In this document: piece by piece, positions 25,486-45,098 of the stretch
Layout of the letters: the number at the start of each line of letters is the position of its first letter
Position numbering within the stretch: the first letter of the stretch is position 1
Source: a virus
Strand: one strand, 5' to 3'
IMG/VR virus record: IMGVR_UViG_3300030333_002628
Location: 7,266-71,265 of that record
DNA: 64,000 nucleotides
Translations under genes and position numbers: made by a program
The notes under the pieces: model-generated
The model's input: the letters and a program-made list of their open reading frames with translations, nothing else
Told to the model about the DNA's origin: nothing
The model's database searches: none

Positions 25486-25728
25486 TTACCAACCTTTACT
25501 ATAAACGTAGTTCTGTAGGCTACGCATCTGACTCTTGGATAACCCCCAAGCCTCACCTACTGATTTACCTGTTAAACTATAACCACCAACAGACCAATCT
25601 ATCCCAGTAGATAGAATAACTGCTACTACTCCATCATCTTTCATTGCTTCTACTAACTTGGGCCATTCGTCCTTGTTTATCGCACGCGCATTAATGGTGT
25701 TCCTATGCCCACTTCTCCACCGCTTCAT
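25486..25728 (-). CDS. Hypothetical protein
   Basis: 80-aa ORF with ATGA overlap to the upstream gene. Confidence 0.55.
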   Translation of the reverse strand: MKRWRSGHRNTINARAINKDEWPKLVEAMKDDGVVAVILSTGIDWSVGGYSLTGKSVGEAWGLSKSQMRSLQNYVYSKGW

Positions 25729-26393
25729 GTTGCTGCCCCCTTTGGGTATGATTCTACGGGATAGCGCAGACTCTTTAATGCTTTCTTTCTGAATCTCTTG
25801 TTTCCGCAGAGAAAAATATACCTATGTTTTCTAGGTCTCTCTTGCATATAGAATCTGTCACCATACTTCTCTCGGATTAACTTACCTCTGTTTTCATGCC
25901 CCCTAAATTCATCCGCTATTGTTTGGCTGTGTAGGTGTTCTAGTCCCTTTATCTTCCAATCAGTTCTCTTTGCACTTAAACCAGTATAGAGAAAATTCGT
26001 GGCTTGGTAGACAATACCTAGATGTTCTTGTGAAGTATCAGCATAAGAAATAACTATTGCGTCTTGTTCTTCCTTCAATAACCGCAAACTTGCACCGACA
26101 AGAATGCTGGCTTCATTATGTAGATTATTCTTTAAACAAAGTCGGTTTAATTCTAACACTTGATGTTGGTAATCTTCCCCAGCCACGCCCTTCCTCAAGG
26201 TAGCGCTGAAAGGAGTTCCGTAAGTTACTACACCTACTAATTCTAATGTGTCTAGTTTGATTAAACCGTAAGCGTAAGTAACACTAGGCCATCTCTTAGC
26301 ATAATGGATATTTAATATGAAGTCTTCGCAATCACTTCTTTTAACAGGTATTACATCGTATTCTTCACGCATCATCCACAACCTCAAAATCAA
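25725..26393 (-). CDS. Mom-like GNAT-fold DNA modification protein
   Basis: HYAKRWPS, GVVTYG, LELNRLCL, VISYADTSQEHLGIVYQATNFLYTG and KHRY match my recollection of phage Mom-like adenine-modification proteins. Confidence 0.7.
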   Translation of the reverse strand: MILRLWMMREEYDVIPVKRSDCEDFILNIHYAKRWPSVTYAYGLIKLDTLELVGVVTYGTPFSATLRKGVAGEDYQHQVLELNRLCLKNNLHNEASILVGASLRLLKEEQDAIVISYADTSQEHLGIVYQATNFLYTGLSAKRTDWKIKGLEHLHSQTIADEFRGHENRGKLIREKYGDRFYMQERPRKHRYIFLCGNKRFRKKALKSLRYPVESYPKGAAT

Positions 26394-36135: not shown

Positions 36136-36354
36136 TACCTACAAATTTCTTATCTACAAACCTTATCTACAAATGAAGTTATCTACAAATCACGTGGGTA
36201 TAAGTAGTTTGCTAAGGGTTTATGTAGTGGTTTTCTTATCTACAAAGAAAAATCCATTGCGTGCGTTCTAAGGCCGGAAAACGAAATCCAGGTCTCAAGG
36301 TAGCATCGCCGGGTAGTTCGCGCTCAGATTGCACGCCAGACGATTTGTAGATAA
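36136..36354. repeat. TTTGTAGATA repeat cluster 1
   Basis: 4 reverse copies (TTATCTACAAA) and 1 forward copy, plus degenerate copies. Confidence 0.95.
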
Positions 36355-36600
36355 CACCTATAAACAAATTTGTTGATAGGTAAGTGTAGATTCTGCACTA
36401 ATGGTTATTTTTGTAACCTAATGTAATGTATACAGCAGGTGTATTTTGCCACACTTAGTAACTTTTTAGTATTTAATGTTATTTTTGCACGAACTTTACC
36501 TTTTACACCAATTTTAATTTCAGATACCTAGTGCCTCTATCACATCAGGTAATTTTTCCTACATCTGGTGTTATAATTACACCGCCTCACTCGGCCCATG

Positions 36601-36746
36601 TATCTACAAAGTTGTAGATAATAAACTTAGCGGTTTACTTTTTGCACTAACTGTGGGCGCGAAGCGCAAGTGTGATTTCCAACACCTAGTGTAATTTTTG
36701 CACCGCCCCCAGGCGCGTAGCGCCTACCTACAAATTTGTAGATAAG
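36601..36746. repeat. TTTGTAGATA repeat cluster 2 (two palindromic pairs)
   Basis: TATCTACAAAGTTGTAGATA at 36601-36620; TACCTACAAATTTGTAGATAAG at 36725-36746. Confidence 0.95.
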
Positions 36747-36788
36747 GGGGGCGTGGGGTTAATATAGTAGGGGTGCGTAGGGTGAGAC

Positions 36789-37196
36789 ATGGCAATTGGC
36801 GGACATGGAACCATCAACCACTATACTGACGGTGAAACTAGAATAGTCATTAGACCACAACCTGTATTATACACGTTAAAGGAAGTGGTGGTAGGTATGT
36901 GGGACATTGACAAGACGACTGACTGGGATGACGAAGGTAATCAAACTGTTAAACTACACGAAACCCTGTGGCAAGGGACGATGGAGAGATACGGTAACAG
37001 GAAGGGTATGGTAGAATACCTATTAATTCACGTTTACGAGAATGCTATCAGGAACCCAGATTGGTGTCCTACAATAAATACTAACTCAAGATATGACGAA
37101 ATCCCCGATGGGTGCAGAGGTAGAATAGAAGACTTCGTTCTTAGAATAATGCCTACTCTACGTGGAGACAAGCACCCTCACAGGGAGGACGGCTGA
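36789..37196 (+). CDS. Hypothetical protein (island cassette 1)
   Basis: ATG 30 nt below TTAATATA; followed by a T-rich tract. Confidence 0.7.
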   Translation: MAIGGHGTINHYTDGETRIVIRPQPVLYTLKEVVVGMWDIDKTTDWDDEGNQTVKLHETLWQGTMERYGNRKGMVEYLLIHVYENAIRNPDWCPTINTNSRYDEIPDGCRGRIEDFVLRIMPTLRGDKHPHREDG

Positions 37197-37276
37197 AGCG
37201 ACTCACCAGAGACGGAGGTATTTTGACAGTTATTTTATTTTTCTATTTTATTTTTTATTTTTCACAGATATTTTTC

Positions 37277-37336
37277 TTTGTAGATAACCTATAACCAAAT
37301 TTGTAGATAAGGGCTTATCCACAAATTTGTAGATAA
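37277..37336 (+). repeat. TTTGTAGATA repeat cluster 3
   Basis: 3 forward copies plus a degenerate reverse copy, then a TTCATAAC box at 37350. Confidence 0.95.
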
Positions 37337-37378
37337 CCTGGCCGATGGGTTCATAACCTGGTAGGGGGTAGCGGTGGT

Positions 37379-37588
37379 ATGAGTGGCGAAGTAGACTGTC
37401 ATGCAATACCAGAAGAACTAACTTGTGTCCTCTGTGGTTTACCGATTAAAACAGACTGGGCGGGATGGAAGTATGGGCATAATGCGTTACCTGTTAAAGT
37501 AGGTCGAGCCTGTGATGATTGTCAGATTACTGTTATTCTACCTGCGAGAATAGGTATGATAATAGATACAGTAGGGGAGGAAGAATAA
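37379..37588 (+). CDS. Small Zn-finger protein (island cassette 2)
   Basis: CVLCG...YGHNALPV..GRACDDC...VILPAR; ATG 29 nt below TTCATAAC. Confidence 0.7.
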   Translation: MSGEVDCHAIPEELTCVLCGLPIKTDWAGWKYGHNALPVKVGRACDDCQITVILPARIGMIIDTVGEEE

Positions 37589-37590
37589 CC

Positions 37591-37767
37591 ATGATTCCAC
37601 ATCAGGTTGTATGTGATGGGTGCGGGGAGACTCACTTCCTAGATACTATAACAGAAGTAGTAGAATGGATGAGTGCCCACTACGATGCCTGTGATGACCC
37701 GAAGGTATACAAGAAACTCATAGTTAATCTAAAAGATAAACTAGAATACGAAGGGAGGTTAGAATAA
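37591..37767 (+). CDS. Small C2H2-like Zn-finger protein
   Basis: MIPHQVVCDGCG...WMSAHYDAC; GGAGG SD. Confidence 0.6.
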   Translation: MIPHQVVCDGCGETHFLDTITEVVEWMSAHYDACDDPKVYKKLIVNLKDKLEYEGRLE

Positions 37768-37769
37768 CC

Positions 37770-37919
37770 ATGAAATCATGTGAAGTAGACATTGATGACG
37801 ATTGCGTTGGTGAGGCAGAATATCTGGTCTTGGGCTTGCACACACGAAGATATTGCTGTGGCCCTTGCCTAGAACACGCGCCGGGCGATGTAGATATTGT
37901 TAACATTAAAGTAATGTAG
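37770..37919 (+). CDS. Small Cys-rich protein (49 aa, not in ORF track)
   Basis: Manual translation MKSCEVDIDDDCVGEAEYLVLGLHTRRYCCGPCLEHAPGDVDIVNIKVM; GGAGG SD. Confidence 0.6.
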   Translation: MKSCEVDIDDDCVGEAEYLVLGLHTRRYCCGPCLEHAPGDVDIVNIKVM

Positions 37920-37995
37920 TCAAAAAAACAGTTAAACTAGGTCAGATATTTTAATTTTTATTTTATTTTTCATTTTTTCACTCAAAAGGGGCGAA

Positions 37996-38064
37996 ATTTG
38001 TAGATAAGCCCCCAATATACCCAAATTTGTAGATAAGAGCGCTATATACAAATTTGTAGATAAG
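37996..38064 (+). repeat. TTTGTAGATA repeat cluster 4
   Basis: 3 forward AAATTTGTAGATAAG copies about 27-29 nt apart, then TTCATAAG at 38076. Confidence 0.95.
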
Positions 38065-38104
38065 AGAGCGACAGGTTCATAAGGTGGAGGGTGGTGGTGG
38101 TGTC

Positions 38105-38356
38105 ATGGCGAACTACCCAAGAGGGAAAAACACCGATACAATAAACCTAACACCAAGTCCTAGCGGATTCTTCGATATGCTATGGCTCATTGCTACTTCA
38201 AGTGAAAATGTAGGAGACAGGGAGTATGCTAGAAGAACGCTTAAAGCAGGTTACATACGTGGTTTAGCAAGTATACCAGATGACCTAGAAGGTAGTATAA
38301 CAGAAATGACAAGCGGGGAACCAATCGAAGATATGATTCCTGACGAGAGGGAGTAA
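38105..38356 (+). CDS. Hypothetical protein (island cassette 3)
   Basis: Start set at MANYPRG, 29 nt below TTCATAAG. Confidence 0.65.
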   Translation: MANYPRGKNTDTINLTPSPSGFFDMLWLIATSSENVGDREYARRTLKAGYIRGLASIPDDLEGSITEMTSGEPIEDMIPDERE

Positions 38357-38357
38357 A

Positions 38358-38525
38358 ATGGCACTATCAAGAAAGCACTTCAGAGAAATGGCGAAGGCTT
38401 GCGCTCGCCTCCCTGATGATGATAACAAAACAGTTATTGTAAACACGCTCGCTAAAATAAATGCTAACGCAAACCCCAGATTCCAGAGGGGGAGATTCCT
38501 AGCCGCTTGCTATAGGAAGGAGTGA
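38358..38525 (+). CDS. Small conserved phage protein (55 aa; SRKHF...NPRF...RFL.AC)
   Basis: Manual translation MALSRKHFREMAKACARLPDDDNKTVIVNTLAKINANANPRFQRGRFLAACYRKE. Confidence 0.65.
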   Translation: MALSRKHFREMAKACARLPDDDNKTVIVNTLAKINANANPRFQRGRFLAACYRKE

Positions 38526-38606
38526 CCGTTAAAGTAACTGGGATCGAAATAGTTTACCTAGTATTTTATATTTTTATTTTACTTTTTATTTTTATTTTTT
38601 CTTTTT

Positions 38607-38798
38607 ATTTGTAGATAATTTTTTATTTGTAGATAACGGCTATCTACAAATTTGTAGATAGGAGGATGCTGCGATTCTTATCTACAAATATTACCTGGCG
38701 GCTTATCTACAAATTATTATCTACAAATCTGAGCCTGCCGCTTATCTACAAATATTCATCCCTGCTTATCTACAAATGGATTCACACTATCTACAAAT
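38607..38798. repeat. TTTGTAGATA repeat cluster 5 with orientation switch
   Basis: 2 forward copies, the perfect 20-bp palindrome TATCTACAAATTTGTAGATA (38641-38660), then 6 reverse copies. Confidence 0.95.
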
Positions 38799-38865
38799 GG
38801 CTCGGAAGGCCCAAAAATGGCCTAAAATAACGGTGACTATAAGTAGCGGTGGCCTCTCACAGCAC

Positions 38866-39000
38866 CTGCCGACTTGTCGGCCTACCGAAATCTGGCTGGG
38901 AACAGTCAGAAGAACCCGCGCATCCTGATGCGTTTACAGCCCTGACAAAAAGGGGCTGAGGGGGACTTGACGCAGAAAGACGAGTCGGCGCTCTAAGGAG
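38866..39000 (+). ncRNA. Candidate structured 5' leader / cis-regulatory RNA
   Basis: Starts about 30 nt below ACTATAAG (38836). 11-bp closing stem 38868-78/38979-89 encloses three hairpins, one with a GGAA tetraloop. Ends at the AAGGAGG SD. Confidence 0.55.
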
Positions 39001-39009
39001 GAAAAACGA

Positions 39010-40551
39010 ATGGAAAACAGATATGTAGCCATGCGAACCATCCTACTAACCGCCCTGCTTCTCGCAGGGGCCGGAGTAGCGTCTGCCACAGATGACTCTG
39101 TGGTGGTCGAGAAGAACGCCGACATTGGGGGCAACCTAGATGCCTGCTCAGAAGATCGAGTGGTTATCACTCAGGCAGCCCTCAGACTGACCGATGAGCC
39201 GACTGTGTGCCATCCTAACGCGGACTGGAAAGCCCGTAAGAGGAGGCGCACTCTGGCCGCCAACAGTAAGGCACAGAAGGGGGCGCGAGTCCCCAAGAGC
39301 CACAAGCGGAACGGAGAATACCCCATCCGCAAAAACCTGTTGAATCGGCCCGCCGCCATGTCTGTCGCTGGCATTCAGCCAGAGTCAGGGATGAACGCGG
39401 AACAAGTGATTGAAGTCACCGGACTCGGAGACTGGCATTGCGAGAAGACCACGCAATATGCCCGAACCGGAGAAGTGTTGACGCTATACAATCAAACGTC
39501 TGAGGGACAGTTTGAGGCTGTTGAAATCCCCCAATATGAAGAAGTGGTGAACACCAAAGGCAACCTGCAAAGGCTGACCCGCAGAAGTGACACAAGGGTT
39601 CAATTCGGGCCTGTTGGAGACAATTACACCGTCCTCCAGCACTCCGATGCAATCCGAATGGTGCATGATGTGGTTGATGCCCTTGAACTGGACTGGGAGT
39701 ATGTTGGGACTGTTGATAATGGTCGCAAAATGCACGCAGCCCTACTCATGCCTGATGATGCTGCCTTCGCCCTGCCCGACTTCAATGACGGACAGGAGAA
39801 GTTACAGCAATACATCGGTATCACGAACCAGCATGACGGGAAGGGGGCATTCTCCTTCTCGCAGTTCGTGATGAGGATATGGTGCTGGAATCAGTTCGTA
39901 GCCACATTGGGCGCAGTCGGGAACAAGGGTAAGTCAGCCAACGCTGATGTGTCCTTCCGAAAGACGTTCAGGCACAATCAGCACATGGAAGCGAACATCG
40001 CAAAGTGGTCGCAGGTCATGGCGCTGACAACCCAGCATAACAGGGCTTACATCGAACTGGTGGAAGAACTGCTGGATGTGCCGATGGATATGTCTGAGCG
40101 CATTAACTTCTACGTGAACCACTTGGGCCTCAAGGGGCATCAGAAGCGCGTAGAGGCGGACGGAACTAACCCTTACGGGCTATCCACCAAGGGCCAGATA
40201 AAACTAGACACGCTGCTAGACTTGGAGACACAGGAACAGAACCAAGTCGGGCGCATGGATGGGACTGTCTGGCAGGCTGTTCAGGTGCTTCTTGACTACT
40301 ACGACCACGAATACCTCTACGATAAGCAGGGGGACGTTTCCTTGGCACGTGCAAAGGATTCGCTACAAGGTCGGGTGGCAAAGAGGAAGGTGCTAATCCA
40401 GAAGTGCGGATTGATGTCCATTCAGGACGAATCAGCATGGAAAGAGCAGGTGTCCTTCCACGCGCACCTAGTCGAGAAGGATGATGACCCAGAGGACGAC
40501 CCAGAAGCAGAGGAGAACGCGCTTCTGGATGCGGCCCTAGAACTGGCCTAG
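39010..40551 (+). CDS. DUF932 / TIGR03299-like phage-plasmid protein with N-terminal signal-peptide-like extension
   Basis: GLGDWHCEK, RRSDT....GPVGDNYTVLQH, GTVDNGRK, ITNQHDGKGA, MRIWCWNQ, RHNQ, GTVWQAVQ..DYYDH; AAGGAGG SD. Confidence 0.8.
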   Translation: MENRYVAMRTILLTALLLAGAGVASATDDSVVVEKNADIGGNLDACSEDRVVITQAALRLTDEPTVCHPNADWKARKRRRTLAANSKAQKGARVPKSHKRNGEYPIRKNLLNRPAAMSVAGIQPESGMNAEQVIEVTGLGDWHCEKTTQYARTGEVLTLYNQTSEGQFEAVEIPQYEEVVNTKGNLQRLTRRSDTRVQFGPVGDNYTVLQHSDAIRMVHDVVDALELDWEYVGTVDNGRKMHAALLMPDDAAFALPDFNDGQEKLQQYIGITNQHDGKGAFSFSQFVMRIWCWNQFVATLGAVGNKGKSANADVSFRKTFRHNQHMEANIAKWSQVMALTTQHNRAYIELVEELLDVPMDMSERINFYVNHLGLKGHQKRVEADGTNPYGLSTKGQIKLDTLLDLETQEQNQVGRMDGTVWQAVQVLLDYYDHEYLYDKQGDVSLARAKDSLQGRVAKRKVLIQKCGLMSIQDESAWKEQVSFHAHLVEKDDDPEDDPEAEENALLDAALELA

Positions 40552-40586
40552 CCCGGATCGAGTGAGTCCACTTCGGAACAACATAA

Positions 40587-40657
40587 GTCAGCAGGGGGGG
40601 CAGAGAATCGCCGCCCCTGTTGACCCACTTTCTGCGCGGTTTTTTTTCGGTTTTTTC
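40587..40657 (+). terminator. GC-rich hairpin followed by T-tracts
   Basis: GTCAGCAGGGG...CCCCTGTTGAC stem, then TTTTTTTT. Confidence 0.65.
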
Positions 40658-40659
40658 GC

Positions 40660-40986
40660 ATTTGTAGATAAGAAAATCCCATTTGTAGATAAGGATTTTG
40701 ATTTTATTTGTAGATAAGATTTTTATTTGTAGATAAGATTTTGATTTTATTTGTAGATAAAAATTTGTAGATAAGAGGAATTTTTATTTGTAGATAATTT
40801 TTTGGGAAATTTGTAGATAAGAAAATTTGTGTATAAAAATTTGTAGATAAGAATTTGTATGTAATAATTTGTAGATAAAAATTTGTAGATAAGATGGCGT
40901 AGCCTAAATTTGTAGATAAGGCTAGTGCTGTAAATTTGTAGATAAGAAGCCAGGTGAAAATTTGTAGATAGCCCGCTTATCTACAA
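40660..40986 (+). repeat. TTTGTAGATA repeat cluster 6 (densest)
   Basis: 14 exact forward copies, 2 degenerate copies and a final reverse copy, with spacers of 1-15 nt. Confidence 0.97.
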
Positions 40987-41021
40987 TTATTGCTTATAGG
41001 CAGATACCCATTCCGCTATTC

Positions 41022-41144
41022 ATGGCAAACGGAAACAAGCCTACGAAGCACAGCCAGAAACCGCCCAGAGTTACCTTCCTGATGGAAGTGACCTTCGATG
41101 AGCAGGGTTGCACCCTGCAAATCTTCGATGTGAGGAGGGTCTGA
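41022..41144 (+). CDS. Small hypothetical protein (40 aa)
   Basis: Manual translation MANGNKPTKHSQKPPRVTFLMEVTFDEQGCTLQIFDVRRV; ATG about 28 nt below TTATAGG. Confidence 0.55.
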   Translation: MANGNKPTKHSQKPPRVTFLMEVTFDEQGCTLQIFDVRRV

Positions 41145-41145
41145 A

Positions 41146-41583
41146 ATGGATAAGGACGCGCCGATATTCCGAGGAGAGAAGATCGAAATTCCTCAGCACA
41201 TGGTCGAAGACTACCTTCACATTCTGGAACTTGGCTACGGCAACCCCCACAGCCGAAACCCAGATGATACCGAGAAAATAGACGCTCTACGCATCCTCTT
41301 GGGCAGAATGACAATCCAAGAAGAGGCAATTCAAGAACTCTGCTCGGAAGTATTCGACAACCCCAACAGACACCCGAAACTCTACGAGAATGAGGAGGAT
41401 ATGAGGCACTACGACCTTAAGCCATTCACCGACCTATGGCTAATGTATGCGAGTGATTCCAAACTCTACGCATCACAGGGAACCCTAACAGACGCAGCAC
41501 TTGAGGCAGTTAAGGAATACGAGCCAGAGAGCGACATTGAGGCCCGATTTGCCGCAATGGTTCAGAGGGGAGGGGGTTATTGA
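41146..41583 (+). CDS. Acidic hypothetical protein
   Basis: 145 aa; GAGGAGG SD. Confidence 0.7.
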   Translation: MDKDAPIFRGEKIEIPQHMVEDYLHILELGYGNPHSRNPDDTEKIDALRILLGRMTIQEEAIQELCSEVFDNPNRHPKLYENEEDMRHYDLKPFTDLWLMYASDSKLYASQGTLTDAALEAVKEYEPESDIEARFAAMVQRGGGY

Positions 41584-41760
41584 ATGACGGAATTGAGAAT
41601 TGGTCTAATTACTTCCCGCTACCGAGTTTCCCATCCTCAGATTCGACATGACCCAGAGATGGCGGAGAGGGTCAAGAAATTCTTGGCAGAGAAGCAGAAG
41701 GAAGACCGAGATCGAATGTGGGCCAGATTCGCAGAGGAGTTAGACGGACTATTATCTTAG
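41584..41760 (+). CDS. Small hypothetical protein (58 aa)
   Basis: Manual translation MTELRIGLITSRYRVSHPQIRHDPEMAERVKKFLAEKQKEDRDRMWARFAEELDGLLS. Confidence 0.55.
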   Translation: MTELRIGLITSRYRVSHPQIRHDPEMAERVKKFLAEKQKEDRDRMWARFAEELDGLLS

Positions 41761-41769
41761 AAATTCTAC

Positions 41770-41816
41770 GGTGGCGGGGGTGTTTCCGTTCAATTTTCCC
41801 CCGCTACCAAATTTTT
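41770..41816 (+). terminator. GC-rich hairpin followed by T-tract
   Basis: GGTGGCGGGGG...CCCCCGCTACC 11-bp stem right after a stop codon. Confidence 0.6.
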
Positions 41817-41826
41817 CCAGGCTACG

Positions 41827-42040
41827 ATTTGTAGATAATTTTTGAGGCTACGATTTGTAGATAAGGCCAGAATTTGTAGATAAGAATTTGTAGATAAGAA
41901 TTTTAATTTGTAGATAATTTTTTCTTTTTTTATTTGTAGATAGGCGAAAATTTGTAGATAGGGGGCCAGGCCAGGATCGGCGGCCAAAATCGGAAAAAAA
42001 TCCTGCCTGGAAAATCGGCTGAATCCGTCCTTTGTAGATA
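41827..42040 (+). repeat. TTTGTAGATA repeat cluster 7
   Basis: 8 forward copies; the last is just upstream of TTCATAAG (42047). Confidence 0.95.
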
Positions 42041-42075
42041 GGACTATTCATAAGGGGCAACACTATCCCAGAGCC

Positions 42076-42807
42076 ATGCAATCCGGCAATGGAATGTTAG
42101 AAGTAGTAAAATTGAACGCAAAAATAGGGGCTGAAACGGCAGCCTTCCTCAGAGAGAACGGCATGGTGCTAACTAGGGCACAGAACGCCATTCTAGTGCC
42201 AGAGGAGGCCGCCCACATGATGCTCTCGATTGAGGGGCAGATTCAGGCCGTAAACTGGGCCAGAGAGACCCAGAAGAACGGCCTAACGCCAGCAGAGAGG
42301 CCCGACTGCGAATGCGGGGGACACCTGAACGCAGATTACGGCCTATCGGACAGAATTCCGACCTGCTCGCGCTGCCAGACCCCCAGATTCGCGGGGACTC
42401 GCTCAATCAGGGAGAAGGTCAGCCAGACCTACGAGCCAAGCCTGTCAGACCACGTAGACGGGTTCACCTTGGTGATTAGGGACGAGCCAAAGAGAAGGGC
42501 GCTCAAGAAGACCCAGAGCGAAAGGGGCGGCCCTTGGGAGACCCAGACCCTATTCTGTGGGGCAGCAGTCCGACTAAGGGGCTTCGGGGAACAACTGTGG
42601 GCCTTCACAGACAGCACAGGCCGCTATTGCGGTGAGGGGCTTCTATGGGCCTTCGGCGTGTCCCCTAGTGGCATAACGGGCATTGTGGCAATCCACCCAG
42701 CCCAGACCGCGCAGTTCGTAGGCAGGGTTCAGATGACAGCCGACCCCTTCGACCTACTAACCACAGTAGACGCACCCAGCGCACTAATCCGCACCTACTG
42801 GGGCTAG
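42076..42807 (+). CDS. Hypothetical Zn-ribbon-containing protein
   Basis: CECGG...CSRC; ATG 29 nt below TTCATAAG; GC-rich. Confidence 0.7.
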   Translation: MQSGNGMLEVVKLNAKIGAETAAFLRENGMVLTRAQNAILVPEEAAHMMLSIEGQIQAVNWARETQKNGLTPAERPDCECGGHLNADYGLSDRIPTCSRCQTPRFAGTRSIREKVSQTYEPSLSDHVDGFTLVIRDEPKRRALKKTQSERGGPWETQTLFCGAAVRLRGFGEQLWAFTDSTGRYCGEGLLWAFGVSPSGITGIVAIHPAQTAQFVGRVQMTADPFDLLTTVDAPSALIRTYWG

Positions 42808-42843
42808 TCAAGCCAAGATCGAAAGGCTAGAGGAAAACGTAAG

Positions 42844-42918
42844 GTCTGGGGGGGCAGAAGTCCCCCCAGACTGGGCAGATTTTCGCAGGGTCGCCACCCT
42901 GATTTTTTTGATTTTTTT
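42844..42918 (+). terminator. GC-rich hairpin followed by T-tracts
   Basis: GTCTGGGGGG...CCCCCCAGAC 10-bp stem between convergent genes. Confidence 0.65.
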
Positions 42919-42976
42919 CCCAAAAATTTTCATTACTACGACTTACCCTGGGGCTACCGGGTCGAAAAATTTTTTA

Positions 42977-43363
42977 CTAAATTTTTGAAATGGGCTTTAT
43001 TAACTTCCAATGCTTGATGTTATTCTTTTTGGTTGTCAGAACTTCGCCGTTTTTCTCACATATACGCATGAATGCACCTACGGAATACCCATTCAATTGA
43101 GTCCACTTCGGAGGAACCTTCTTGTTGGCGGCTTCGGCAATTTGTGATGATGTCAACCACTCGCCTTCTGCGAAATAAGAAGACAAAGCCCACTCTATTG
43201 CTTCCGCAAATACCGTTCTCTTATTGTTGGGGCCGTGTTTTCTAACCTTGCGGTCTTGTAACTCAAACTTCTTACCAGTTCTCCTATTGCGAGTCTGGCG
43301 CTTATTACGCCCACCGTATGGCCCCTTACCCCACTTACCTGCCACGTATAACCCTCCCGCCAA
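42977..43363 (-). CDS. Basic wHTH-like protein
   Basis: EWLTSSQIAEAAN...LNGYSVGAFMR...HWKL. Confidence 0.55.
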   Translation of the reverse strand: MAGGLYVAGKWGKGPYGGRNKRQTRNRRTGKKFELQDRKVRKHGPNNKRTVFAEAIEWALSSYFAEGEWLTSSQIAEAANKKVPPKWTQLNGYSVGAFMRICEKNGEVLTTKKNNIKHWKLIKPISKI

Positions 43364-44831
43364 GAGCAGACTCCTTTCTATTTATCTTGTAACTTCCTCC
43401 CTGCCATTCCCCCTTCTTCATGGTCTTGAATACGGATGGCATATCTGGAGTCTTATACGAGAACAAATCAATTGCGTGTGCTAGAGCCATAGCACAGTCG
43501 TTATGCTTACCCAAATCTATTATCTCTCCATCGCGCCACGCATGACTCTCTAGTTCTTCTAGCACCATATTAACCATTTTCCTTGTTTCATCGTCACCAT
43601 AGGGAAAACATACTAGTTTACGCTCAAACCAAACCCTCATGCGGTTCAAAAGACCCTGCTTAAGCGTTTTATTACTCACTTTACTCTCTCTATAATCTAA
43701 TACTGCGCCCTTTTGAGAGATAAGGGGGTCATAAAGGTGCTGAAACCCTGCTGCTTCGACAGCAAAGGGGGGAGTCTTGTATTTCTTACTCCACTCAATC
43801 ATCATATCGGCCTGTCTGTCTGGAGGGAAGTCATTCCTACGCCACATATCTACGAAGTGAATATATCCTTCATCGTCTTGCGCTAAACATATCATAACGC
43901 TGTAGTCTTGTCCCAATCCATGTGCTGGGTCGAACCCAATACCGTATTTTAGACCATCTAACTTCTTAGGAGTCAGAACCGCATCCAGATTTAGGTTGCA
44001 TCTAGTTAAACTTCTTGGGAATACGCTCGCTTCGTCATCAATGACCTTACACATATACTCTTGAATAAAAGATAACTCTCCCATAGCCTCTTTCTGCTCT
44101 AACAGGAAATCTATAGGTCTAAATTCAGGCCATAACTCAATAGCAGTCACATTTTCGGGGTCAGCCTTGTATTCGTCCCAATTCTTGACCGCAGACCAAG
44201 ACCCACTCTTCCAAGTGTCGTTTTCTAACATCTCAGTATGATACAAGTCATTCATAGACATCGGAGTGCCTACACAATAGATAGAAGTGCCTGGAGAGAG
44301 CATAGGAGTGACCTTTTTCCTAAACCAATTCCTCAAACCGTCATAATTCATGTCACCAGTATCGTCTAATACGTCATCGAAGGCAATACAGGCCGGATGC
44401 TCACCACGAATCGCAGAACCAACAGATGTAGCCCGAATCCAAGCGCCATTAGTGAATCTTAACTCAAGTTTGTTGCCTCTACGGGTATCTAGGTATTTAC
44501 TTAACTGAGGGTGTCTTTTCATGTCATCTCTAATCTCTTCAAGCCTTCTAATTGCCAAATCTTTGCTCGCTGAGAATAGCCAGCACGAAAAGGGCTTATC
44601 GCGCCACTTTTCAAAGAGACATTGATGTAATAGTTTCACTCTGAGGGTAGTAGACTTACTGTGGTCTCTCGGTGCAATGACACAAACCCTATGGACTTGT
44701 TTCCCGTCTCTTTCACCATACATTTCCATCCATTCGCCAATATGTTCTCCCCACGTATAACCAAGCCACTTGTAAAAGTATTCTACGTCAGTTCTCGACC
44801 TAGCCATAGAGAAATCAGTTCCAAAAGTCAT
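43335..44831 (-). CDS. terL: Terminase large subunit
   Basis: Walker A APRDHSKST, IRGEHP, Walker B IAFDD, VGTP, FIQEY, RNase H GFDPA and HNDCAMALA. Confidence 0.95.
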   Translation of the reverse strand: MTFGTDFSMARSRTDVEYFYKWLGYTWGEHIGEWMEMYGERDGKQVHRVCVIAPRDHSKSTTLRVKLLHQCLFEKWRDKPFSCWLFSASKDLAIRRLEEIRDDMKRHPQLSKYLDTRRGNKLELRFTNGAWIRATSVGSAIRGEHPACIAFDDVLDDTGDMNYDGLRNWFRKKVTPMLSPGTSIYCVGTPMSMNDLYHTEMLENDTWKSGSWSAVKNWDEYKADPENVTAIELWPEFRPIDFLLEQKEAMGELSFIQEYMCKVIDDEASVFPRSLTRCNLNLDAVLTPKKLDGLKYGIGFDPAHGLGQDYSVMICLAQDDEGYIHFVDMWRRNDFPPDRQADMMIEWSKKYKTPPFAVEAAGFQHLYDPLISQKGAVLDYRESKVSNKTLKQGLLNRMRVWFERKLVCFPYGDDETRKMVNMVLEELESHAWRDGEIIDLGKHNDCAMALAHAIDLFSYKTPDMPSVFKTMKKGEWQGGSYKINRKESALGGRVIRGR

Positions 44832-45098
44832 TATCGTGGCCTCAATTCTTCTTCTCCGCAATAAGGACATTTGCGACCCTGTATTTTAGCAGTTAGCATA
44901 CTTTTAGCCATCCAACCGCAAGCATTACATTTGGCAGAAGTCCACATATTACTCATGCCCATACTTGTCATAAATCATTTCATTGCAACGAAGACACACT
45001 CTAATTTTACTTATAGGGAAAAGAACTGTCCCGCTTTCTGTTGGGAAAATCTTCTTACATACCGAACATTGAATCAGGTAGTCGTAGTGATGCACCAT
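44831..45098 (-). other. Two coupled small Zn-ribbon ORFs (44949-45098 and about 44831-44956)
   Basis: Manual translations: MVHHYDYLIQCSVC...CLRC and MSNMWTSAKCNACG...CPYCG; TAATG coupling at both ends. Confidence 0.55.

Follow-up and report, generated by a model that had tools for sequence, protein, structure and literature searches.

The genome analysed here (G000, 71,265 bp) contains the tetranucleotide GATC only seven times, and all seven copies form one word, RGATCGR, on the + strand of an island of accessory cassettes beside the terminase genes. The window, i.e. the whole 64-kb stretch of DNA under study, holds all seven between 38.5 and 42.8 kb, as the original prediction had stated for this part of the genome; the other 7,265 bp, which lie outside the window, have 0 further GATC. 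The sites are not unpurged leftovers, and we tentatively favour the view that the word is a strand-specific, cis-acting signal of cassette ends which would most likely act together with the terminator on transcript ends or read-through.

The genome is that of a magrovirus-like archaeal tailed virus of marine euryarchaea, an assignment set by gene content and the published description (PMC5434244, accessible text). Its family B DNA polymerase (PolB) finds its best matches in HF1/HF2-type haloviruses, and it also encodes an RFC-like clamp loader, an XPF/HhH nuclease, a terminase, a portal and a GroEL inside the replication cluster, so that an archaeal-type replication module and a chaperonin occur together with a halovirus-like morphogenetic module. 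Similar to magroviruses, which are assigned to Marine Group II (Poseidoniales), the virus is marine, ~70 kb in size and carries a halovirus-related PolB, the clamp loader and GroEL. The archaeo-eukaryotic primase, a conserved magrovirus gene in the accessible text of PMC5434244, was not identified in G000.

Loss of GATC, AGCT and GTAC across the genome

The seven GATC of the window compare with 214 ± 14 in dinucleotide-preserving shuffles, all 100 of which contained more than seven, and with ~227 expected for the whole genome. Neither AGCT nor GTAC occurs anywhere in the genome, and the island is no exception (0 vs 234 and 0 vs 258 expected); their absence had been missed by the first reading of the sequence. 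Both GATC and AGCT were at 0 in 4/4 complete relatives, and related loci without any GATC amounted to 37/41 in one count and 40/44 in the other. The purge of these two words extends almost everywhere across the family, and the further purged words are lineage-specific, with GTAC, CTAG, CGCG, ACGT, GGCC/CCGG and TCGA lost in some lineages only. The strong restriction or methylation avoidance proposed in the original prediction is therefore borne out by the k-mer count against shuffles and by relatives purged alike.

In the accessible text of PMC8919816, modification of GATC is reported for nearly all marine archaeal genomes examined, that of AGCT for Ca. Poseidoniia and that of GTAC and CGCG for some Euryarchaeota. 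Archaeal tailed viruses without a Dam methyltransferase also lack GATC (PMC8651126, accessible text), and restriction-site avoidance has been described for the general case (PMC6286503, accessible text). Six-frame searches of G000 for D12, N6/N4 and C5 DNA methyltransferases (PF02086, PF01555 and PF00145) gave 0 matches with positive controls. Since the purge is genome-wide and family-wide, affects other 4-bp palindromes too, is accompanied by no viral methyltransferase and matches modification reported for marine archaeal genomes in PMC8919816, its explanation as ordinary restriction avoidance is well supported; by purging GATC, AGCT and GTAC the virus would escape type II restriction enzymes of its host. 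As in the restriction-site avoidance of phages and archaeal tailed viruses, the loss of 4-bp palindromes is near-total, is found in relatives too and goes without a cognate methyltransferase. It differs from the usual case in that three words are purged in one genome, with lineage-specific further sets in the family, and in that the exceptions have a fixed context and specific positions. The main texts of two magrovirus papers neither contain the term 'restriction' nor mention methyltransferases.

The island and its seven GATC sites

Table 1 Features of the island in G000 (positions in the window)
Feature	Position	Strand	Description
Repeat array	36151..42040		Seven blocks, 47 copies of TTGTAGATA, consensus ATTTGTAGATAAG
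Cassette A	38084..38525	+	90-aa and 55-aa ORFs
Site 1, GGATCGA	38541..38547	+	GATC at 38542; 17 nt past stop of 55-aa ORF (last of cassette A), then T-rich tract
Cassette B	39010..40551	+	513-aa DUF932 protein, signal-peptide-like N-terminus
Site 2, AGATCGA	39153..39159	+	GATC at 39154; within N-terminal extension of DUF932 ORF, codons GAA GAT CGA
Site 3, GGATCGA	40555..40561	+	GATC at 40556; 5 nt past DUF932 stop, ~30 nt upstream of terminator hairpin
G-run terminator-like hairpin after site 3	40589..40622	+	z = -2.2; then T-runs
Cassette C	41022..41760	+	40-aa, 145-aa and 58-aa ORFs
Site 4, AGATCGA	41180..41186	+	GATC at 41181; 35 nt into 145-aa ORF
Site 5, AGATCGA	41709..41715	+	GATC at 41710; 50 nt before stop of 58-aa ORF (last of cassette C), ~60 nt upstream of hairpin
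Hairpin after cassette C	41770..41808	+
Site 6, GGATCGG	41974..41980	+	GATC at 41975; intergenic, between repeat array and 243-aa gene
Cassette D	42076..42807	+	243-aa protein, CxC...CxxC motif
Site 7, AGATCGA	42816..42822	+	GATC at 42817; 10 nt past stop of 243-aa gene, ~20 nt upstream of strong hairpin; slot adjoining terS
G-run hairpin after site 7	42843..42872	+	z = -4.2; then second hairpin 42885-42901 and T-runs
terS-position ORF (128 aa) and large terminase	42977..44870	-	Directly adjoin island

The island consists of four cassettes separated by blocks of TTGTAGATA repeats, most copies of which are oriented with the downstream genes (Table 1); the relatives G001 and G002 have analogous arrays, in which the 3' half co-varies. 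At the end of every cassette stands a hairpin or a T-rich tract, in most cases with RGATCGR. The DUF932 protein shares 26-32% identity with its homologues in G001-G003 and the 243-aa protein 54% with 250-aa ORFs of the closer relatives L072 and L077, which also conserve the hairpin after site 3; relatives of the cassette C ORFs were found in the same strain only. The cassette order is common to G000 and L072 (small ORFs, DUF932, variable cargo, 243/250-aa gene, terS), with a different 87-aa cargo in L072 in the slot of cassette C, between DUF932 and the 243/250-aa gene.

The single context and polarity claimed in the original prediction hold for 7/7 sites: GATCGA occurs six times and GATCGG once on the + strand, with TCGA in 6/7. 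A dinucleotide model of the island gives 7/7 RGATCGR a probability of ~2e-8, for a motif chosen after seeing the data. The 9-mer GATCGAGTG is common to sites 2 and 3, and GATCGAAAT to sites 1 and 4 and the lone GATC of L020. Successive sites lie 612, 1402, 625, 529, 265 and 842 bp apart, over 4.3 kb. L066, a metagenome contig of independent origin with 99.57% identity over window positions 39882-44049, keeps the five sites that it covers, and all seven are spanned by contigs from a different study (run X2), which depart from the window at only three places, none of them a site; the sites are therefore not assembly errors. Site 6 was further confirmed in a contig of run X3.

The retained word in the purged island

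Ordinary GATC has been purged from the island as well. GATC without a CpG flank numbers 0 vs 12.2 expected (P = 5e-6), AGCT 0 vs 14 and GTAC 0 vs 13, while + strand GATCG is kept (7 vs 3.3 expected), so the seven sites are not leftovers. The complementary form CGATC is absent from the + strand (0 vs 3.4), and all CpG-flanked GATC classes together stand at 7 vs 6.7 expected. In the backbone RGATCGR is missing (0 vs 17.5), and G stands before none of its 131 ATCG. By itself the shared polarity reaches only weak significance (p ~0.01-0.05), since the coding strand is rich in purines and so biased ~1.8:1 towards the forward form.

These counts bear on two explanations in which the word itself has no role. 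The original prediction had suggested that bound proteins shield the sites; proteins on the 47 TTGTAGATA repeats, whose dense arrays flank every cassette, would coat the island and hide GATC from restriction. As AGCT, GTAC and ordinary GATC are purged there, the island is exposed to restriction, and shielding is therefore disfavoured and very improbable.

A tolerated context without function is a possible, if somewhat unlikely, explanation. Host enzymes would cut GATCG/CGATC poorly, or an overlapping modification (for example at CpG or TCGA) would protect it, and the sites would be neutral; they would lie only in the fastest-evolving, most exchanged region, the ancestral backbone having had zero GATC at the outset. 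The near-expected number of CpG-flanked GATC beside the loss of all others favours this explanation, as do the residual AGCT of other lineages, which carry at least one outer C/G flank in 19/22 cases vs 21/35 in AGCT-tolerant loci, and the purge of TCGA in L024 (0 vs 15 expected), which implies that TCGA-specific systems exist in the host range. However, it leaves the anchoring past stop codons and the purine flanks on both sides unexplained, and it is at odds with the missing CGATC of the island, the missing RGATCGR of the backbone, the lack of a viral methyltransferase and the GATC without a G flank present in L072, L077, L034 and a variant from run X9.

RGATCGR is found again in three other lineages. 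Among residual GATC, 13/16 distinct sites in purged genomes fit the word vs 23/112 in GATC-tolerant relatives (P ~3e-8; 5 of these 23 come from L066 and hence are the island itself). In the aligned sites, position -1 is R in 14/14 and position +1 is G in 12/14; the motif content is ~12 bits and the likeness stops at ~9 bp.

Cassette ends, strain turnover and comparison with known systems

In G000 and its closest relatives the sites cluster 5-31 nt past cassette-final stops, upstream of terminator hairpins or T-rich tracts, and strong hairpins lie 3' of sites. As originally noted, three G000 sites (1, 3 and 7) lie just past such stops. With a post-stop window of 35 nt, which spans ~3-4% of each region and was, like the motif, defined after seeing the data, the proportions are 3/7 in G000 (P = 1.7e-3), 4/4 in L072 (P = 1.9e-6) and 2/4 in L077 (P = 5e-3), in a subclade sample of three genomes and strain variants. 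L072 has a GATC 7 nt past its own DUF932 stop, and it shares GATC slots with G000 although the spacers are unalignable. The sole GATC within 10 kb of L020, GGATCGAAAT, also precedes a hairpin. In the GATC-free G001 and G002 the hairpin directly follows the stop, with no equivalent word. The purge of ordinary GATC from the island, the word in other lineages and its anchoring past stops thus uphold the retained polar signal of the original prediction.

We infer from this that selection keeps the word despite the cost of GATC. The seven GATC would be copies of a short strand-specific word, approximately A-R-GATC-G-A-R, on the sense strand of the accessory cassettes, with a preference for the short gap that separates the final stop of a cassette from the terminator hairpin or T-rich tract beyond it. 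A sequence-specific factor may recognise it on DNA or on the transcript, and word and terminator would most likely control where cassette transcripts end or read through. Mycobacteriophage stoperators, 13-bp asymmetric repressor sites in short intergenic gaps, are oriented with transcription and occur genome-wide. Like them, the word is short and asymmetric, keeps one orientation relative to transcription, sits at gene ends and occurs in many copies; in contrast to them, it measures ~7-9 bp, is confined to four cassettes and has no known binding protein. Against a cassette-end signal speak the near-neutral turnover, the 4/7 sites outside the post-stop window, the lack of an equivalent word in G001/G002, the low information and short likeness of the motif, one opposite-orientation copy (L072/L077) and the fact that no factor reading RGATCGR was identified.

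Turnover between close strains looks near-neutral, which also suits a tolerated context. In the X9 variant (~93-95%), site 1 is destroyed by A>G at 38543 and site 7 is changed to GATCA. L077 has the post-DUF932 site deleted and AGATCT in the site-7 slot, L072 and L077 differ in two of their GATC sites, and one motif copy common to both is in opposite orientation. Positions within a slot are not orthologous. The site-7 slot next to terS always holds GATC (L066, L072, L077 and the X9 variant), with differing flanks.

Such non-orthologous positions would be expected if cutting, nicking or joining of accessory cassettes took place at RGATCGR and GATC were recreated at each boundary, which we consider unlikely. 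The mechanism could be attC-like, a strand-specific nick, or a cut by the host GATC enzyme with subsequent religation or break-stimulated recombination. The four GATC of L072 split its region exactly into three hairpin-array-gene units without internal sites, GATC is found where cargo that is divergent or different gives way to the conserved modules of hairpin and array, G000 and L072 carry different cargo between DUF932 and the 243-aa gene, and a bare 4-bp core with variable flanks would be typical of restriction-type enzymes. However, the island yielded no integrase, transposase or dedicated nuclease, and the ORFs scanned with PHROGs or Pfam no recombinase family; three G000 sites (2, 4 and 5) lie inside ORFs, random religation does not predict constant flanks within G000, and no exchange event with a GATC breakpoint was directly observed. 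Known systems for comparison are the attC cassettes of integrons and the promoter/stem-loop-flanked mobile cassettes of T4-type phages. Like the island, both have accessory cassettes in tandem with hairpins at their ends, boundary elements that are conserved and a conserved slot in which the cargo varies. Unlike them, each G000 cassette has its own promoter-like repeat array; no tyrosine-recombinase integrase was found next to the cassettes, and their boundary core is a 4-bp palindrome forbidden in the rest of the genome.

The original prediction had further proposed a methylation-sensing switch analogous to the Dam-controlled P1 pac/ori. In P1, which encodes a Dam of its own, pac consists of Dam-regulated GATC hexamers that crowd into ~160 bp about the cut. 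Common to the two systems are seven words containing GATC, their preferred flank and their location near terminase genes. Nonetheless, the analogy fails because the sites are unclustered (265-1402 bp apart, never several GATC in ~100-250 bp as in P1/oriC), no viral Dam is present, and sites are lost or changed in their flanks between close strains (X9 variant; L072 vs L077). What is left is a switch driven by host Dam-like methylation, which would distinguish incoming from replicating DNA and control packaging, replication or cassette expression; we regard it as quite improbable. The mom gene of phage Mu is Dam-regulated, and a Mom-like enzyme was the only modification-type match in Pfam scans of the G000 ORFs, but its gene lies 12 kb from the island sites. 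A writer enzyme is probably present in the host, given the widespread GATC modification in marine archaea (PMC8919816, accessible text), and the constant GATC beside terS fits a switch; yet all other family members manage without any GATC.

To our knowledge, nothing is known experimentally about defence and counter-defence in these viruses, whose hosts are among the most abundant uncultured archaea of the surface ocean. The lineage-specific sets of purged words are a readout of the hosts' restriction enzymes and could serve to group viruses according to host population. Since exceptions of fixed context persist at cassette ends, a word forbidden elsewhere must have protection there or be required there. 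In the first case a widespread archaeal restriction system would have a blind spot that depends on the flanks; in the second, the word would be a new cis element of accessory-gene cassettes. Should RGATCGR instead, as seems unlikely, bound a virus-borne cassette system for swapping accessory, probably anti-defence genes, possibly via a host GATC enzyme that breaks only cassette ends, this would be an integron-like exchange without an integrase, built on a restriction site forbidden elsewhere in the genome.

Count, word and context of the GATC sites

GATC occurs seven times in the window, against 214 ± 14 in dinucleotide-preserving shuffles; the window spans bases 7266-71265 of a single 71,265-bp virus record, whose remaining 7.3 kb hold no further copy. 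All seven sites lie within the accessory cassette island, and on the + strand each reads RGATCGR (GATCGA six times, GATCGG once). The exact count thus reproduces the original prediction in its positions, in the absence of GATC elsewhere and in the uniform, polar context. Assembly errors are not responsible for the sites, because other contigs carry the same ones: the independent metagenome contig L066 (99.57% identity over window 39882-44049) retains the five sites within its span, and contigs from a different study (run X2) extend over the full set of seven and show only three differences from the window, all of them elsewhere. Among the contig pieces listed, sites 2-5 are uncovered in runs X3, X4 and X9, and X3 covers site 6 only.

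Other palindromes are purged from this genome as well. AGCT and GTAC are missing (0 vs 234 and 0 vs 258 expected), and CGCG (50 vs 136) and CTAG (193 vs 356) are low. The purge extends into the island itself (38070-42960), where AGCT (0 vs 14) and GTAC (0 vs 13) are likewise absent. Under an order-1 model, GATC without a CpG flank (DGATCH) should occur 12.2 times there and is never seen (P = 5e-6). The original prediction had also considered that bound protein shields the sites; such shielding is disfavoured and most improbable, since this very stretch has lost its AGCT, GTAC and ordinary GATC. The island has a GC content of 0.49, compared with about 0.41 over most other parts of the genome. 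A recent import from a GC-richer donor is unsupported, as the cassette regions of the complete relatives G001 and G002 are GC-elevated too and the island itself is purged; mere import of unpurged DNA does not explain the seven sites.

The same model expects 3.3 copies of + strand GATCG without a 5' C (DGATCG), where seven are seen, and 3.4 copies of + strand CGATC (CGATCH plus CGATCG), where none is found. It is conceivable, if rather unlikely, that RGATCGR is a tolerated context without function, either resistant to the host enzyme or protected by an overlapping modification. Summed over all CpG-flanked classes, the counts fit this explanation very well (7 seen vs 6.7 expected), but it accounts neither for the positions of the sites nor for their purine flanks. 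In the backbone, none of the 131 copies of ATCG is preceded by G, and RGATCGR is absent where 17.5 copies are expected.

Residual GATC fits RGATCGR on either strand at 13 of 16 distinct sites in purged genomes vs 23 of 112 in tolerant relatives, five of these 23 belonging to the island as represented by L066 (P about 3e-8); in the GATC-tolerant loci L035 and L036 the contexts are mixed. The aligned sites give the consensus A-R-GATC-G-A-R, with a purine at -1 in 14/14, G at +1 in 12/14 and a purine at +2 in 13/14; beyond this word of 7-9 bp they share no further similarity. By our own count, 11 of 12 independent copies are in sense orientation. Polarity on its own carries little weight (p about 0.01-0.05), since the forward form is already favoured 1.8:1 by purine loading. 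Two further candidates were rejected. No long repeated module ends at GATC (5.80 vs 5.98 matches per 20 nt, left vs right). The longer motif TCGA[AG][AT][GT] is polar where G000 (the present genome), G001 and G002 have their arrays (13 on + vs 2 on -), but was dropped for want of enrichment in the array regions of the relatives.

Architecture of the cassette island

The island adjoins a small ORF in the terS position and the large terminase. Its cassettes follow a common plan, in which a block of ATTTGTAGATAAG repeats precedes one to three + strand ORFs, a stop codon and a G-run hairpin or T-rich tract. The gap between the last repeat and the first start codon is about 30-60 nt in most cassettes and about 210 nt before the DUF932 gene. 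Arrays with the same ATTTGTAG core and another 3' half (CATAG in G001, C[CAG]A in G002) are present in two complete relatives, and the other two, G003 and G004, have about ten copies of the TATA-like AAGGTTTATAGGG in their place. The arrays have the look of promoter or regulator sites in many copies, perhaps co-evolving with a virus factor. Viral contigs were also scanned with a 14-mer of the repeat; among the matches listed, 80 loci were examined, none had three or more copies, and they were dismissed as chance.

Coordinates of features in the window and, where indicated, in relatives
Feature	Position	Strand	Observation
Very large ORF, 2692 aa	2984-11062		Nearly without family matches
Mom-like DNA-modification gene	25725-26393	-	PF25680, E = 6e-39
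13-bp ATTTGTAGATAAG repeats, dense arrays	36151-42040	mostly that of downstream genes	47 copies vs 0.95 expected
Array and leader upstream of DUF932	38609-39010	8/10 array copies on -	Array mostly inverted
N-terminal extension of DUF932 protein	39010-39340		About 110 aa, signal-peptide-like hydrophobic stretch at start
GATC sites 1-7	38542, 39154, 40556, 41181, 41710, 41975, 42817	+	RGATCGR
Segment resembling G002 terminal repeat	42878-42897		About 20 nt
Very large ORF, 1942 aa	52760-58588		Nearly without family matches
Array region of G001	45.8-53.0 kb of G001		ATTTGTAG core
Array region of G002	63.9-71.8 kb of G002		ATTTGTAG core
Direct terminal repeat of G002	1-119 of G002		119 bp
Palindrome past DUF932 stop in L072	5585-5596 of L072	+	CCGGGATCCCGG, perfect, 12 bp

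The cargo consists of a 90-aa and a 55-aa ORF, a 513-aa DUF932 protein, orphan ORFs of 40, 145 and 58 aa and a 243-aa protein with a CxC...CxxC motif. Members of the DUF932 family are generally regarded as cytoplasmic proteins carried by mobile elements, and the signal-peptide-like start of this one is therefore unexpected; its N-terminal extension is common to the 89%-identical homologue P0002. The GC-rich leader of about 210 nt that follows the inverted array contains no convincing ORF and has no Rfam match. Over 35.5-43.5 kb, the sole Rfam match was a sub-threshold, 27-nt chance one on the hairpin of site 7. A scan of viral contigs for DUF932 returned none, a scan for the 243-aa family only the two contigs already known, and the protein atlas gave no usable match for the 243- and 145-aa proteins. 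DUF932 was unmentioned in the literature retrieved with anti-restriction terms.

The opening word of the G002 terminal repeat resembles, by eye, a segment of the present genome just past site 7 and its hairpin; BLAST of the 119-bp repeat against this genome gave no match. Should the resemblance be genuine, the cassettes would lie beside terS at a physical end of the genome.

Sites past stop codons and their possible role

In terminase sequence the closest loci are L072 and L077 (89% identity); they are 94-95% identical to each other and carry four GATC each, all in the cassette region beside terS, whereas L015, which is the other part of the L077 contig, carries none. Their cassette order matches that of the present genome; the DUF932 protein has 533 aa there, and the 243-aa gene has a 250-aa homologue. 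In window orientation, the L072 sites lie 31, 7, 28 and 14 nt past the stops of cassette-final ORFs. Position was assessed with non-nested + strand ORFs of at least 50 aa and the 35 nt after each stop, which make up 3-4% of each region. With this window length, set after the data had been seen, it holds 4/4 sites in L072 (binomial P 1.9e-6), 3/7 in G000 (P 1.7e-3), the three that the original prediction had placed just after cassette-final stop codons, and 2/4 in L077 (P 5e-3), L072 and L077 being mutually non-independent. A third L077 site is the counterpart of an L072 post-stop site, with no ORF of at least 50 aa called before it. Between G000 and L072 the site-bearing spacers are unalignable and the GATC positions within the slot non-orthologous; the hairpin and array downstream are conserved. 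A more distant locus, L020, whose capsid-region protein is about 53% identical, has a single GATC in 10 kb (GGATCGAAAT), on the same strand and upstream of a hairpin. The underlying observation is correct, and the exceptions to the purge are real, non-random and common to a small subclade.

Three observations argue for a selected, strand-specific element: the purge reaches into the island, the word is fixed, and independent lineages have it anchored past stop codons. The best reading, though a tentative one, is a strand-specific signal at cassette ends, where RGATCGR would act together with the terminator. Against it, four of the seven sites in G000 lie outside the post-stop window, G001 and G002 have a hairpin directly past the stop and lack an equivalent word, and neither family scans nor a methyltransferase search in all frames found a protein able to read or write it. 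Turnover of the sites among close strains is almost neutral in character. In the variant of run X9 (about 93-95% identity; single low-depth contigs), site 1 is lost (GGTC) and site 7 has become GATCA; in L077 the post-DUF932 site is lost by deletion, the site-7 slot reads AGATCT and a new AGATCGA lies inside the DUF932 gene.

The four L072 sites split their region exactly into three hairpin-array-gene units, as joints of cassette exchange might; this alternative, attractive on that ground, is improbable, with neither an exchange event nor an enzyme seen. Also proposed was a methylation switch like that of P1 pac or an origin. The anatomy is unlike either, and what is left of the proposal, switching driven by the host, is quite improbable. 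One L072 site, 7 nt past the DUF932 stop, is at the centre of the palindrome CCGGGATCCCGG, a segment deleted in L077.

Palindrome purge across the virus family

PHROGs and Pfam searches identified structural and packaging genes (tape-measure protein, tail tube, portal, large terminase), replication and repair genes (family B polymerase, RFC-like clamp loader, PD-(D/E)XK and Mre11-like nucleases, XPF/ERCC4-HhH nuclease), a GroEL-type chaperonin and a Mom-like DNA-modification protein. Compared by description only, this gene set fits the magroviruses as characterized in the accessible part of their description (PMC5434244), notably in GroEL within an archaeal-type replication cluster. Among named phages, the top polymerase matches are haloarchaeal HF1/HF2-type viruses (about 25% identity), and the island-bearing runs are labelled as marine or seawater metagenomes. 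Megablast of 16 kb against a phage collection gave no match, and a tRNA search found none. Relatives match only parts of the two very large ORFs, at 28-37% identity, save for a 130-residue stretch at 65% in G003.

Among the relatives in IMG/VR (41 for the capsid-region protein and 44 for the terminase, some contigs being in both sets), GATC is zero in 37/41 and 40/44 loci, and AGCT in 35/41 and 39/44, respectively. All four complete relatives (68-74 kb) lack both words; three of them are also purged of GTAC, two of ACGT and one of CTAG. Other lineages lack CGCG, L037 lacks GGCC with CCGG low, and L024 lacks TCGA, so that the sets of purged 4-bp palindromes are lineage-specific on top of GATC and AGCT. 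The AGCT that survives in otherwise purged lineages (L020, L025, L026, L028, L035) is mostly (C)AGCTG. At least one outer C/G flank accompanies 19/22 distinct residual AGCT vs 21/35 in AGCT-tolerant loci, paralleling the G flank of residual GATC, and several such sites are conserved among related contigs.

Only G000, of the five complete genomes, has any GATC, and it also carries the Mom-like gene, for which tblastn found no homologue in the other four. The target rule of Mu Mom does not fit the adenine of GATC, and the enzyme is disfavoured as protector of the sites. Searches in all frames found no D12, N6/N4 or C5 methyltransferase in this genome.

According to the accessible part of PMC8651126, haloarchaeal tailed viruses without a Dam methyltransferase are also without GATC. 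In marine metagenome-assembled genomes, the accessible part of PMC8919816 describes GATC modification in nearly all archaeal ones, weak AGCT modification in Ca. Poseidoniia, GTAC modification in one euryarchaeon and CGCG modification in Euryarchaeota. The words marked in hosts are those lost from these viruses, genome-wide and family-wide; restriction avoidance, a known kind of phenomenon that the original prediction had invoked, is therefore well supported. The main text of the magrovirus papers searched mentions neither restriction nor methyltransferases. The lineage-specific sets of purged palindromes could act as barcodes of host restriction repertoires.
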